From the NCBI RefSeq assembly GCF_003334355.1, contig NZ_QOWP01000008.1: a stretch of DNA of 64,000 nucleotides. One strand, 5' to 3'. This DNA is from Escherichia coli. Lineage in GTDB: Bacteria; Pseudomonadota; Gammaproteobacteria; Enterobacterales; Enterobacteriaceae. Positions 15,053-22,433 of the stretch are shown here, piece after piece; within the stretch, counting starts at the first letter, position 1, and each line of letters starts with the position of its first letter. Both the position numbers and the translations under genes were made by a program. Below the pieces are notes generated by a model, which was not told the origin of the DNA, searched no databases, and saw nothing but the letters and a program-made list of their open reading frames with translations.

Positions 15053-16374
15053 TGACCAAATTCTCAGTGGTTGTCGCAGGCGGTGGAAGCACCTTTACGC
15101 CAGGCATCGTGTTGATGCTCCTGGCGAATCAGGACCGTTTCCCGCTTCGTGCACTGAAATTTTATGATAACGATGGTGCGCGGCAGGAAGTGATTGCCGA
15201 AGCCTGTAAAGTCATCCTTAAAGAAAAAGCGCCGGACATTGCGTTTAGTTACACCACCGATCCTGAAGTAGCGTTCAGCGACGTTGATTTTGTTATGGCG
15301 CACATCCGCGTCGGCAAATACCCGATGCGCGAACTGGATGAAAAAATCCCGCTGCGCCACGGCGTTGTTGGTCAGGAAACTTGCGGACCCGGCGGAATAG
15401 CGTACGGCATGCGTTCCATTGGTGGCGTCCTGGAACTGGTGGATTATATGGAAAAATATTCACCAAATGCCTGGATGCTCAACTACTCCAACCCGGCAGC
15501 CATTGTCGCAGAAGCCACGCGTCGTCTGCGCCCGAATGCGAAAATCCTCAACATCTGTGACATGCCAATCGGTATTGAAAGCCGGATGGCGCAAATTGTT
15601 GGGCTGCAAGATCGCAAACAGATGCGCGTGCGCTACTACGGCCTGAACCACTTTGGCTGGTGGACATCAATTGAAGATTTGCAGGGCAACGACCTGATGC
15701 CCCAGCTGCGGCAATATGTCTCTAAGCATGGTTATGTTCCACCGCAGCAAGATACGCATACTGAAGCGAGCTGGAACGACACCTATGCAAAAGCGCGGGA
15801 TGTCCAGGCACTGGCCCCGGATACATTACCAAACACCTATCTGAAATATTATCTCTTCCCGGATTACGTCGTTCAGCATTCCAACCCTGAACATACCCGC
15901 GCGAATGAGGTGATGGAACATCGCGAGAAACAGGTTTTCGATGCTTGCCGCGCCATTACGGCGGCAGGAAATTCAGCGGCGGGCAAGCTGGAAATTGACG
16001 AACATGCGTCATACATCGTCGATCTGGCGGCGGCAATTGCCTTCAACACTCAGGAGCGGATGTTGCTGATTGTGCCTAACAACGGGGCAATTCATAACTT
16101 TGATGATGAAGCGATGGTCGAGATCCCGTGTCTGGTTGGGCACAACGGACCAGAACCACTGGTGGTCGGCGATATCCCGCAGTTTCAGAAAGGGTTAATG
16201 AGTCAGCAAGTGGCGGTGGAAAAACTGGTCGTGGACGCCTGGGAACAGCGTTCATATCAGCACCTGTGGCAGGCGATTACGTTGTCGAAAACGGTACCGA
16301 GCGCCTCGGTCGCCAAAGCTATTCTGGATGAATTGCTGGAGGCCAACAAAGCGTACTGGCCAGAGTTACGTTAA
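15052..16374 (+). CDS. glvG: GH4-family 6-phospho-alpha-glucosidase (GlvA/MalH-like), intact 440 aa
   Basis: N-terminal Rossmann motif [13 protein letters not shown]; full-length relative to GH4 enzymes; start overlaps the EIICB stop. Confidence 0.8.
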
Positions 16375-17264
16375 TTGTGTGGACTGGCATCCGTTGGGTG
16401 CTGGTCCGTATTCTTTAGCACGGCTGACGGCGCATAACCAAATTTATGTTTAAAGGCTTTGCTGAAATGAAAGGAGTCGAAGAAGTTGAGCGTATCAGCG
16501 ACTTCGCCAACCGAGTTTCCTTGTTGCTTTAATAGCGATAGCGCCAGATCCAGACGCGCATCGAGGTAATATTCTTTCGGCGTCTTGCCGGTATAGCGTA
16601 AAAACAGACGACGCAACCAGGCTTCGCTACAGGGGATCGTGGCAGCCATATCGGCTACGCTCCAGCGTTGTTGCAGACTGGCATGTAAAGTGGCAATTAA
16701 TTTTTCAATTTGCCGCCGTTGTGGATCTTTTTTACCGTCTGCGTACATAAGACAAATCCACTGATAAATAATTTTCGTCAGAAAAGCGACTGCCAGATTA
16801 TTTTTTATTGCTTCTGGTGAAGTTATTAATTCAGCAACTTCAGTGAGTTCCTGATTATAAATTTCGCCATTATAAATAACGCTTTGCTGACCAACGGGAA
16901 TATCCATCATACTGGTGGGGGTAAATTCCATCCAGTACTGTTCCCAGACTAAACCTTCACAGTGATAAGAGTGAATATCCATTGGCTTTAAAAATATAAT
17001 ACAGTTGCCATGCAGTGTTATTTGTTCGCCATTCTTTAAAAGAATTTTCCCACATCCTTGTACGGTATACACCGCAACCCATGAGTTGGCGATAAGCGGT
17101 TTCTTCTTGTCCCGCGGCCAGATCACCCGGTAATGCTCGTCGGCGTAGGTATGCCAGAGCGAGATCAGAGAAATTCCGCTGGAGATCACATTTTCGTTAA
17201 TCAATAAGGGAATATTGTACGGAGTTTCGTTTTTTACATCTGAACTTTGCAATTTTCCATTCAT
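16371..17264 (-). CDS. yidL: AraC-family transcriptional regulator
   Basis: ORF 16371..17294; start at MNGKLQSS gives 297 aa; C-terminal AraC HTH; divergent from yidK. Confidence 0.85.
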
Positions 17265-17430
17265 TTTAATATCCCTCCGGCGAATTATGCTCACAACCTG
17301 AACTTAACAGAAAACAATCCGTTCAGGGATACGACGTTTGTATTTTAAGAATCTGACTGCCTGACCCGACGCATTTTACCTCTCCCTATATTCATGCGTC
17401 CGGGACATAAACATAAATAAGGGCTATGAG

Positions 17431-21239: not shown

Positions 21240-21587
21240 ATGAAAATTTCCCGCCTCGGAGAAGCGCCTGATTACCGCTTCTCGCTGGCTAATGAGCGTA
21301 CTTTTCTGGCGTGGATCCGTACTGCACTAGGATTTCTGGCGGCGGGGGTTGGGCTTGATCAACTTGCGCCAGATTTCGCCACGCCCGTCATTCGCGAACT
21401 GCTGGCGTTGTTGTTGTGTCTGTTTTCCGGCGGGTTAGCGATGTATGGCTACTTGCGCTGGTTACGCAATGAAAAAGCGATGCGTCTGAAAGAGGACCTG
21501 CCCTACACCAACAGCTTATTAATCATTAGCTTAATATTGATGGTCGTGGCGGTGATCGTTATGGGACTGGTGTTGTATGCCGGATAG
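21240..21587 (+). CDS. yidH: DUF202 inner-membrane protein YidH
   Basis: 115-aa ORF with hydrophobic segments. Confidence 0.85.
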   Translation: MKISRLGEAPDYRFSLANERTFLAWIRTALGFLAAGVGLDQLAPDFATPVIRELLALLLCLFSGGLAMYGYLRWLRNEKAMRLKEDLPYTNSLLIISLILMVVAVIVMGLVLYAG

Positions 21588-21939
21588 CCGCAAAGCCAGA
21601 CGCATTGCCGACCCAGGACTGCAGCCGGAGCGCACATCACTGGCGTGGTTTCGTACCATGCTGGGCTACGGCGCGTTGATGGCGTTGGCTATCAAACACA
21701 ACTGGCACCAGGCGGGCATGTTATTCTGGATTTCGATTGGCATTCTCGCCATCGTGGCGCTGATCCTCTGGCACTACACCCGTAATCGCAATTTAATGGA
21801 TGTCACGAATAGCGATTTTTCCCAATTTCACGTAGTCCGTGACAAATTTTTGATCTCCCTCGCGGTGTTATCTCTCGCAATACTGTTTGCTGTAACGCAT
21901 ATACATCAACTTATCGTATTTATTGAGAGAGTCGCATGA
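21577..21939 (+). CDS. yidG: Inner-membrane protein YidG (DUF202-like)
   Basis: 120-aa ORF overlapping yidH by 11 nt. Confidence 0.85.
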   Translation: MPDSRKARRIADPGLQPERTSLAWFRTMLGYGALMALAIKHNWHQAGMLFWISIGILAIVALILWHYTRNRNLMDVTNSDFSQFHVVRDKFLISLAVLSLAILFAVTHIHQLIVFIERVA

Positions 21940-22433
21940 CAGGAAGTCAGGTCATTGATGCTGAAGAGGACAGGCATAAACTGGTTGTAGAGTACAAGGA
22001 TGCTCTGCAACCTGCCGATTTTTATCACAATTTCAAACAGCGGGGCATCCGCTCCGTACAGCTCATTCCCTATCTTGAATTTGATGACCGGGGCGATCTG
22101 ACGGCCGCTTCGGTGACAGCAGAGCTGTGGGGGAAATTTTTAATTGCCCTGTTCGAGTGTTGGGTGCGGGCAGATATCAGTCGTATCTCGATTGAGCTTT
22201 TTGACGCCACCTTACAAAAATGGTGTGGCAGCGAAAACCCGCAACCGCGCTGTGACTGCCAGGCGTGCGACTGGCATCGCCTGTGCCCGCACGCTCGGCA
22301 GGAGACGCCAGACAGCGTGCTTTGTGCGGGCTATCAGGCGTTTTATTCTTACTCCGCACCGCATATGCGGGTGATGCGTGATCTGATAAAGCAGCATCGT
22401 TCTCCCATGGAGCTGATGACGATGCTGCGGTGA
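21936..22433 (+). CDS. yidF: YidF, Cys-rich protein resembling the C-terminal (SPASM-like) part of anaerobic sulfatase-maturating enzymes
   Basis: 165-aa ORF with CDCQACDWHRLCPHARQ and LCAGYQAF cysteine motifs; no radical-SAM CxxxCxxC N-terminal domain. Confidence 0.75.
   Translation: MTGSQVIDAEEDRHKLVVEYKDALQPADFYHNFKQRGIRSVQLIPYLEFDDRGDLTAASVTAELWGKFLIALFECWVRADISRISIELFDATLQKWCGSENPQPRCDCQACDWHRLCPHARQETPDSVLCAGYQAFYSYSAPHMRVMRDLIKQHRSPMELMTMLR

Follow-up and report, generated by a model that had tools for sequence, protein, structure and literature searches.

What does an enzyme become when more than half of its fold is deleted and its gene is nevertheless retained? This question is raised by a locus at positions 16371 to 22433 of the Escherichia coli chromosomal DNA analysed here (64,000 nucleotides of contig NZ_QOWP01000008.1, hereafter the window). 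The locus contains the genes yidL, yidK, yidJ, yidI, yidH, yidG and yidF. A preliminary description took it for a sulfated-sugar module, with a regulator, a symporter and a sulfatase, and suggested that the dedicated anaerobic sulfatase-maturating enzyme (anSME) might survive in truncated form as YidF. Our analysis makes it probable that this is a sulfatase module whose anSME shrank, in frame, to YidF: a protein under selection, no longer a maturase, and perhaps a partner of YidH and YidG. The features are as follows.

16371..17264, minus strand: yidL, AraC-family regulator, divergent from yidK (open reading frame (ORF), RefSeq coding sequence, Pfam)
17265..17430, no strand: divergent intergenic region between yidL and yidK, presumed from its position to be a control region
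17431..19146, plus strand: yidK, solute:sodium symporter of sugar (SGLT) type (NCBIfam, PDB relatives)
19143..20636, plus strand: yidJ, Cys-type S1 sulfatase (Pfam, PDB relatives, ratio of nonsynonymous to synonymous divergence (dN/dS, or omega))
19296..19328, plus strand: formylglycine signature C52-TPAR-AGLF-TG of YidJ, read off the translation
20632..20678, no strand: strong hairpin between the convergent genes yidJ and yidI (RNA fold)
20683..21132, minus strand: yidI, small membrane-protein gene (ORF; 'protein YidI' in RefSeq)
21240..21587, plus strand: yidH, DUF202 inner-membrane protein (RefSeq, K-12 annotation, Pfam of orthologues)
21577..21939, plus strand: yidG, second DUF202 inner-membrane protein (RefSeq, K-12 annotation, Pfam of orthologues)
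21936..22433, plus strand: yidF, 165 codons, in-frame-reduced anSME descendant (orthologue alignment, anSME homology, dN/dS)
22251..22325, plus strand: cysteine region of YidF (C106, C108-x2-C111-x5-C117 ... C130), equivalent by alignment to the anSME auxiliary-cluster-II ligands

Overlaps occur between yidK and yidJ (4 nt), yidH and yidG (11 nt), and yidG and yidF (4 nt, ATGA). The layout first described is largely borne out. ORFs, RefSeq and Pfam agree that yidL encodes an AraC regulator divergent from yidK, the coordinates give the 4-nt yidK/yidJ overlap, and yidF starts 1300 nt past the yidJ stop, as expected from the 1.3 kb quoted. However, the interval between yidJ and yidF is not empty; three genes, yidI, yidH and yidG, had been overlooked. 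In E. coli, emrD lies directly downstream of yidF and is convergent with it.

Pfam gave no match on YidF, neither Radical_SAM nor SPASM. Hence, the homology of YidF rests on NCBIfam, PDB sequence and fold comparison. Two NCBIfam models match, TIGR03942 (5.4e-21; 75.1 bits, cut-off 349.45) and NF010308 (2.2e-19; 69.7 bits, cut-off 484). Note that these anSME models align in two separate stretches, at about a fifth of the family cut-off. Against anSMEcpe (PDB 4K36), YidF residues 27-95 pair with enzyme residues 175-246, and residues 105-152 with 314-370. Enzyme residues ~1-160 and ~247-313 are missing, so that ~40% of the enzyme is left. An AlphaFold2 model of YidF, built from a 65-sequence alignment, has a predicted local distance difference test score (pLDDT) of 81.7 and a predicted template modelling score of 0.80; the Cys loop, residues 101-125, is not confident. 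When this model was used in Foldseek, the anSMEcpe entries 4K36-4K39 were the sole significant PDB matches (E ~1e-5, TM 0.63). The similarity of YidF to the C-terminal half of anSMEs, as first proposed, is therefore significant by sequence and by predicted fold.

The preliminary description was right that YidF has homology to the anSME C-terminus and no radical-SAM domain. It was wrong to see a plain C-terminal part, since the ancestral N-terminus is kept. In protein and nucleotide alignments, the reduced genes still have the ancestral start codon, which overlaps the yidG stop in ATGA, as well as their first 5-27 codons. Because the start and the yidG overlap match those of full-length orthologues, shortening occurred by two in-frame internal deletions, rather than by 5' loss. 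The first deletion removed ~140 residues (the columns of residues ~10-150 of a 374-residue orthologue), comprising the CX3CX2C radical-SAM cluster and the S-adenosylmethionine (SAM)-binding core. After this gap, reduced genes resume ~15 residues before a QP..YR..R motif. The second deletion took ~55-65 residues, the auxiliary-cluster-I segment, and the genes resume just before CxxC. Both gaps in YidF are multiples of three. An N-terminal truncation with a new start codon was considered for YidF and rejected, since full-length orthologues share the MTGC start and the yidG overlap.

The cysteines are also informative. YidF has no CX3CX2C motif, which reads CNLxCRYC in full-length orthologues. 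Of the auxiliary-I cysteines, three (Atlantibacter 246, 252 and 267) lie in deleted sequence, and Escherichia has also lost the fourth (322). Conversely, the auxiliary-II set is kept: Atlantibacter 309, 312, 318 and 335 correspond to YidF C108, C111, C117 and C130, which align with the CxxCx5C...C cysteines within anSMEcpe 314-370. Thus YidF retains four of the intact enzyme's 11 cluster cysteines, all belonging to auxiliary cluster II. Across 65 sequences, C108, C111 and C130 never vary, and conservation of C117 is at least 90%. The SPASM-like region described earlier is accordingly only partly there, with the auxiliary-II cysteines kept but the middle, with three of four auxiliary-I cysteines, gone. 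The catalytic Asp, which adjoins Cys276 in the solved Clostridium enzyme, would fall inside the second deleted segment. YidF shares with anSMEs its descent and a neighbouring sulfatase gene; on every other feature tested, it falls outside the family. Since the radical-SAM core, the SAM-binding region and auxiliary cluster I are all deleted, we conclude from this anatomy that YidF is predicted to be incapable of the anSME reaction, and is not a maturase.

What did the ancestral gene look like? The locus was surveyed in one genome per species, giving 66 Enterobacteriaceae loci with yidH-yidG directly upstream in all. The last gene is intact in 30 (350-384 residues), full length without the CX3CX2C motif in one, frameshifted in three, reduced in frame in 30 (162-249 residues), and reduced and further broken in two. 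The 30 intact genes begin MTGC(Q/H)VMAKPASSRCNLxCRYCFY, which includes the CX3CX2C motif, and 19 of them close a contiguous cluster in which yidL is divergent from yidK-yidJ-yidH-yidG-anSME. The complete operon is found in Atlantibacter, Kluyvera, Pluralibacter, Trabulsiella and Citrobacter braakii, werkmanii and sedlakii. Enterobacter cloacae provides a further example; its 367-residue last gene product has Pfam Radical_SAM and SPASM matches, and the yidH ATG is 9 nt (AAGGAG) past the yidJ stop. These operons occupy the same site as in E. coli, between yidE/glv and emrD/dsd, with the same ATGA overlap after yidG. Their proteins are 82-91% (YidJ), 71-91% (YidK) and 79-96% (YidH) identical to those of E. 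coli. They differ in their last gene, which encodes 367-384 residues and every one of the 11 cluster cysteines, and in having yidJ directly against yidH. The last gene of E. coli encodes 165 residues, and there yidI and the hairpin lie between yidJ and yidH. Comparison of these loci indicates that the region descends from a six-gene module, with yidL divergent from a yidK-yidJ-yidH-yidG-anSME operon. Hence, the suggestion of a truncated dedicated maturase gains support from orthology, a full-length anSME following yidH-yidG at the same site in 30 of 66 species, and from the 19 contiguous clusters.

The lost anSME was probably YidJ's own maturase. Every one of the 19 full-length genes beside yidJ has all 11 cluster cysteines; of ten full-length genes without an adjacent yidJ, four lack at least one of them (Fisher P = 0.009). 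Similarly, counts of intact versus degenerate genes are 19 to 6 with yidJ and 9 to 25 without (Fisher P = 2e-4); both tests ignore phylogeny and are indicative only. The full-length orthologue shares 43-44% identity with E. coli AslB and YdeM (41% between those two) and 43-48% with Bacteroidales anSMEs. Because the lost enzyme is so placed with respect to AslB and YdeM, ancestors of Escherichia would have had three paralogous sulfatase/maturase pairs. As a separate observation, one of ordinary decay, Trabulsiella odontotermitis 01 (5304-8640 of its locus) has both yidJ and the full-length anSME gene disrupted.

Short YidF-like proteins (162-178 residues) occur in Escherichia, Citrobacter, Salmonella, Klebsiella, Raoultella, Leclercia, Silvania and Superficieibacter. 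Their identity falls as low as 42%, yet they have a common start, MTG(C/S), and a near-invariant C-terminus, APHMRVMRDLIKQHRSPMELMAMLR. Did they arise once? Reduced genes of Leclercia and Silvania share 63-75% identity with the full-length gene of Leclercia sp. 29361, but only 56-60% with other full-length genes. In 181 of 200 bootstraps, the tree places them with full-length Leclercia, and monophyly of all reduced forms was recovered in one of 200. Deletion junctions vary between lineages, even inside the Leclercia/Silvania group, and over their first 16-18 nt full-length and reduced Leclercia alleles do not differ. In Citrobacter amalonaticus ku-bf3, the CX3CX2C motif still stands before the deletion. 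The alignments and tree point to similar reductions having arisen at least twice. A single ancient truncation was rejected for the Leclercia/Silvania group on the bootstrap and junction evidence, and for that group only.

An exhaustive profile search also recovered intermediates, each form on several independent contigs. A 363-residue Kosakonia form has a broken radical-SAM motif. In Kluyvera forms of 311-317 residues, and a 315-residue Shimwellia form, the motif is gone and the auxiliary-I segment is partly deleted. The shortest are a 220-residue Kluyvera form and a 213-residue metagenomic form. The series reads as stepwise in-frame erosion, apparently sparing the start and the C-terminal ~100-140 residues. 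Outside this series and outside Enterobacteriaceae, the reduced-YidF profile matched anSME relatives from Actinomadura fibrosa (327 residues) and metagenomes in one uninterrupted stretch, so these would have no auxiliary-I segment; some also have no CX3CX2C motif. Loss of the auxiliary-I segment may be a more general route of anSME decay or repurposing.

Sequence change in yidF is constrained. In Escherichia, dN/dS is 0.17 for yidF and 0.02-0.06 for yidH (0.02), yidG (0.06), yidJ, yidK and emrD; the intact anSMEs of Citrobacter and Kluyvera have a value of 0.08. By region, YidF has omega values of 0.13, 0.18, 0.26 and 0.05, and neutrality is rejected at ~1e-14. For the C-terminal 34 residues, omega is 0.05 at normal synonymous divergence (pS 0.34). 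Eight independent close pairs of reduced genes gave omega of 0.11-0.34 (each P <= 1.5e-3), and six of these pairs are from genomes without yidJ. The 7-kb stretch 16000-23000 is present in 5423 of 5426 complete E. coli genomes, with 100% identity in several, and yidF is present at >=80% coverage in 5421. We conclude that YidF is the product of a core E. coli gene under purifying selection and not of a dead pseudogene.

With what does YidF now work? Among the 30 species with an in-frame reduced YidF, 21 have no yidJ, yidK or yidL. Conversely, yidH-yidG is linked to yidF or the anSME gene in 66 of 66 loci, with 79-99% identity in yidH across all of them. The DUF202 family, PF02656, was found on YidH/YidG orthologues and YidG relatives in precomputed Pfam data, and RefSeq and K-12 product names agree for the window copies. 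Loci lacking yidJKL have yidE or glv genes on one side and, on the other, genes fitting D-serine dsdA-dsdX-dsdC. In Citrobacter, Leclercia, Klebsiella and Salmonella enterica, the presumed dsdA (PALP, ~440 residues), dsdX (GntP permease) and dsdC (LysR) are convergent with yidF; they were assigned by size and Pfam family, for example at ~8540-12400 of one such locus.

In the window, yidI and the hairpin stand between yidJ and yidH. The hairpin, at 20632..20678, has a folding energy of -25.4 kcal/mol (z = -4.7), and none of 200 shuffles was as stable. Judging from the fold prediction, it is likely to terminate transcription in both directions, isolating yidKJ from yidHGF in Escherichia. YidI has no Pfam, NCBIfam, PADLOC or PHROG family, and most complete clusters lack its gene; Escherichia, S. 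arizonae and a few Citrobacter have it. Because yidJ is mostly absent and yidH-yidG always present, and because yidI and the hairpin separate yidKJ, the present role of YidF would belong with the DUF202 pair and not with the sulfatase. PADLOC and PHROG scans of YidF, YidG, YidH and YidI found nothing; hence, an origin in a defence system or phage is unsupported.

As the preliminary description had it, YidJ is a sulfatase with a CTPAR motif: Pfam Sulfatase (PF00884) matches residues 4-341 at 1.3e-72, covering the full model (1-301), and SGSH_C matches at 1.6e-16. The (C/S)-x-P-x-R-x4-TG signature reads C52-TPAR-AGLF-TG in the translation, and the 29 YidJ orthologues examined all have an identical CTPARAGLFTG core. 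The closest PDB relatives are the S1_30A enzyme 9IHK (3e-46), the iota-carrageenan 2S sulfatase 6PT4 and the GlcNAc-6-sulfatase 5G2V. Beyond CxPxR, the TDxx, GKWH, PH and DHG-K residues of YidJ align with those of solved S1 sulfatases; specifically, by alignment to 9IHK and 6PT4, the T-D-x-x, GKWHL, (E/D)PH-P, DHG/DQG and (I/L)xKG positions are matched. Since the sulfatase domain starts at residue 2-4, there would be no room for a signal peptide, and YidJ is predicted to be cytoplasmic. For yidJ, dN/dS is 0.046 in Escherichia, and 0.049 and 0.034 where the anSME is intact. Constraint on YidJ is thus equally strong in Escherichia and in species with an intact anSME. The gene is in 5132 of 5426 complete E. 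coli genomes. Some 5% of these genomes have yidF but no yidJ, and damage to yidJ takes several forms: an IS1 insertion in RM9513, two annotated pieces in strain 1444, and only the last 159 nt left in N3.

Genes aslB and ydeM are both found in K-12, and E. coli is suspected to have a further formylglycine-forming system besides them (PMC8379841). Because YidF is predicted to be unable to mature YidJ, yet YidJ stays constrained, we infer that YidJ, if active, must be matured by AslB, YdeM or that suspected system. No functional study of these genes, or characterisation of YidJ, was found in the literature searched; K-12 annotation lists the genes as uncharacterised or putative, with YidJ a 'putative sulfatase/phosphatase'.

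YidK exceeds two curated NCBIfam cut-offs, NF007790 (856.6 bits, cut-off 401) and TIGR00813 (417.1 bits, cut-off 184), which confirms the earlier assignment as a sodium/solute symporter. Its nearest solved structures are Vibrio vSGLT (2XQ2; 1.2e-53) and human SGLT1/2. Because the closest solved relatives of YidJ are carbohydrate sulfatases and YidK is SGLT-like, family resemblance favours a sulfated monosaccharide or small glycoside as the substrate. With a symporter present, and the sulfatase apparently without a signal peptide, the yidKJ module would work by uptake and then cytoplasmic desulfation. The regulator YidL matches Pfam HTH_18 (3e-17), HTH_AraC twice, and AraC_binding (2e-6). It has the two C-terminal helix-turn-helix units and the N-terminal AraC-type ligand-binding domain of the AraC/XylS family, and accompanies yidK-yidJ in 19 of 19 complete clusters. 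The longest yidL ORF begins with GTG at 17294, 10 codons upstream of the ATG at 17264 that is the start in RefSeq and K-12. A scan for consensus promoters was uninformative, with no site in 17265..17430 or in the other intergenic region, and fewer sites in total than in shuffles.

Taken together, the probable course of events is as follows. YidK, an SGLT-like sodium symporter, would import a sulfated small carbohydrate, from which YidJ, a predicted cytoplasmic Cys-type S1 sulfatase, would remove sulfate. The radical-SAM anSME of the ancestral operon would have converted YidJ Cys52 to formylglycine. In Escherichia, yidI and the terminator-like hairpin split the operon, and the anSME gene was reduced to yidF. 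The predicted remnant consists of the last beta/alpha barrel units, a site of four cysteines corresponding to auxiliary cluster II, and a near-invariant C-terminal helix. More tentatively, YidF may now be a non-catalytic, probably metal- or Fe-S-binding, cytoplasmic partner of YidH and YidG, independent of the sulfatase; the partnership is suggested because YidF is always translationally coupled to the DUF202 pair.

Several observations weigh against this reading. In the YidF model, confidence is lowest for the Cys loop (pLDDT 49-59), and members of the C. freundii group have a Tyr in place of the third Cys. The rate of YidF evolution is 3-8 times that of its neighbours and roughly double that of intact anSMEs, which fits partial relaxation of constraint. 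A few strains, E. albertii NBRC 107761 and L. adecarboxylata NCTC13032, have a reduced gene that is itself broken. In Erwinia rhapontici, outside Enterobacteriaceae, yidH-yidG occurs without yidF, so that the DUF202 pair is not strictly dependent on YidF. The sulfated-sugar substrate of YidK and YidJ is suggested purely by family resemblance. Finally, the Fisher tests are blind to phylogeny, as noted, and the tree was made by neighbour joining from 150 columns with very unequal rates, so that two independent origins alone are well supported.

Some details of these exceptional loci are worth recording. E. albertii NBRC 107761 (a draft genome; 2784-4745 of its locus) has yidK and yidJ deleted, with the last ~60 yidL codons beside yidI. 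Its yidF appears frame-disrupted; other E. albertii have an intact 165-residue copy. In L. adecarboxylata NCTC13032 (7968-8456 of its locus), an already reduced yidF is split over several frames. The Erwinia rhapontici locus (4664-5372) has yidH-yidG with an 11-nt overlap, no yidF or anSME gene, adjoining SIS-domain and phosphotransferase system (PTS) genes, and then a transposase.

Could YidF instead be a functionless pseudogene fragment, left open by chance in a module without a maturase? Every catalytic part is gone, and the series of ever-shorter forms resembles erosion. YidF is also the fastest-evolving product of the locus (82-86% amino acid identity within Escherichia, compared to 91-100% for its neighbours), and ordinary frameshifted copies exist at five loci, including those of E. 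albertii, L. adecarboxylata and T. odontotermitis. Chance survival is nonetheless hard to square with omega of 0.11-0.34 in eight independent lineages, each significantly below one, or with a C-terminal value of 0.05 where pS, at 0.34, is normal. Furthermore, the ORF is intact across genera at 42-50% identity, all deletions are in frame with the same start and the same C-terminal ~100 residues, and 99.9% of complete E. coli genomes have the gene. We consider a pseudogene improbable. Still less credible, and in our view very improbable, is that YidF remains a YidJ-specific maturation factor that acts by a non-radical or O2-dependent route, perhaps with YidG and YidH, and is the missing third formylglycine system of E. 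coli. It descends from the dedicated maturase, lies 1.3 kb from yidJ, and was presumably annotated in K-12, at an earlier time, as the enzyme that matures YidJ. A formylglycine system besides aslB and ydeM has, as stated above, been reported for E. coli (PMC8379841). Against such a role, YidF has no CX3CX2C motif, SAM-binding core, auxiliary cluster I or segment for the catalytic base, and no library searched gave any resemblance to formylglycine-generating enzymes. In addition, most species whose YidF is reduced in frame (21 of 30) have no yidJ, and YidF is still under selection in them.

A different idea is that yidH-yidG-yidF has nothing to do with sulfate chemistry and forms a unit for efflux of, or tolerance to, small solutes, with a part in, for example, D-amino acid handling or iron and oxidative stress. 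Here, the ancestral DUF202 pair would have exported sulfate or another anion, with YidF as a regulatory or soluble subunit. In a screen for D-alanine exporters, yidH passed three rounds and yidG the first, but over-expression of YidH did not lower intracellular D-alanine (PMC10299036). According to one published table, D-serine resistance rises when YidF is over-expressed, though this statement is second-hand (PMC12363166). The convergence of yidF with presumed dsdA-dsdX-dsdC in Citrobacter, Salmonella, Klebsiella and Leclercia points the same way, yet these genes are not adjacent in E. coli itself. Deletion of yidH causes H2O2 sensitivity, low NADPH and high total iron (PMC4054840), but such knock-out phenotypes may be polar. 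DUF202 is also listed as the membrane domain of VTC polyphosphate-synthesis subunits (PMC7283521). On this evidence, we regard an efflux unit as rather doubtful. Slightly less doubtful, though still only a tentative proposal, is that the YidF types are recurrently evolved mini-proteins, whose auxiliary-II/C-terminal module has a second job with YidH and YidG that predates catalytic loss. In this job, the module might, for example, handle electrons or metal, or gate a channel for anions or small solutes. Were the job older than the catalytic loss, this would explain why the module is preserved whenever sulfatase maturation is dispensable. Overall, in-frame reduction of the anSME to a selected, non-maturase partner of YidH and YidG remains the reading that we prefer.

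How unusual is such a locus? Pairs of a sulfatase and an anSME are well known, with Klebsiella atsA-atsB and Bacteroides chuR among the examples. E. coli aslA-aslB and ydeN-ydeM resemble the ancestral cluster in that a formylglycine-dependent sulfatase gene stands beside a radical-SAM maturase gene. Unlike these pairs, the module described here has a symporter, a sulfatase apparently without a signal peptide and a DUF202 pair between sulfatase and maturase, and the maturase would no longer be an enzyme in Escherichia. The kind of system, a sulfatase utilisation module, is ordinary; what is unusual is its evolutionary state. Within the literature searched, several points appear to be new: the reconstruction of an ancestral operon that contains the DUF202 pair, the description of YidF as the product of two deletions, and the findings that it is under purifying selection and of recurrent origin. 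As in pseudoenzymes, the catalytically dead relatives of enzymes that are kept for regulation or binding, YidF has lost every catalytic determinant while purifying selection continues. Most described pseudoenzymes keep the full fold with point substitutions, whereas in YidF more than half of the fold has been deleted, in frame, and repeatedly.

The analysis gives yidF, yidG, yidH and yidJ an evolutionary identity, and provides intact reference operons, such as that of E. cloacae, for study of the pathway. YidJ, a conserved Cys-type sulfatase without its own maturase, is a natural substrate with which to probe AslB, YdeM or the suspected third formylglycine system. That a radical-SAM enzyme was cut down more than once, under purifying selection, to one and the same core of ~170 residues makes this an unusual example of gene miniaturisation. 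Such a history may point to an unrecognised function of the auxiliary-II/C-terminal module and of bacterial DUF202 proteins.

The surroundings of the locus differ somewhat from those in K-12. Upstream of yidL, positions 13958-16374 of the window contain intact glv genes, with a fused PTS EIICB and a 440-residue 6-phospho-alpha-glucosidase (15052-16374). In K-12 MG1655 (10174-12604 of its locus), glvG is annotated as a pseudogene, and glvB and glvC are separate genes. Past emrD, at ~23700-24000, are ysdE and the toxin gene tisB, followed by ivbL-ilvB, with coordinates transferred from an identical RefSeq record.

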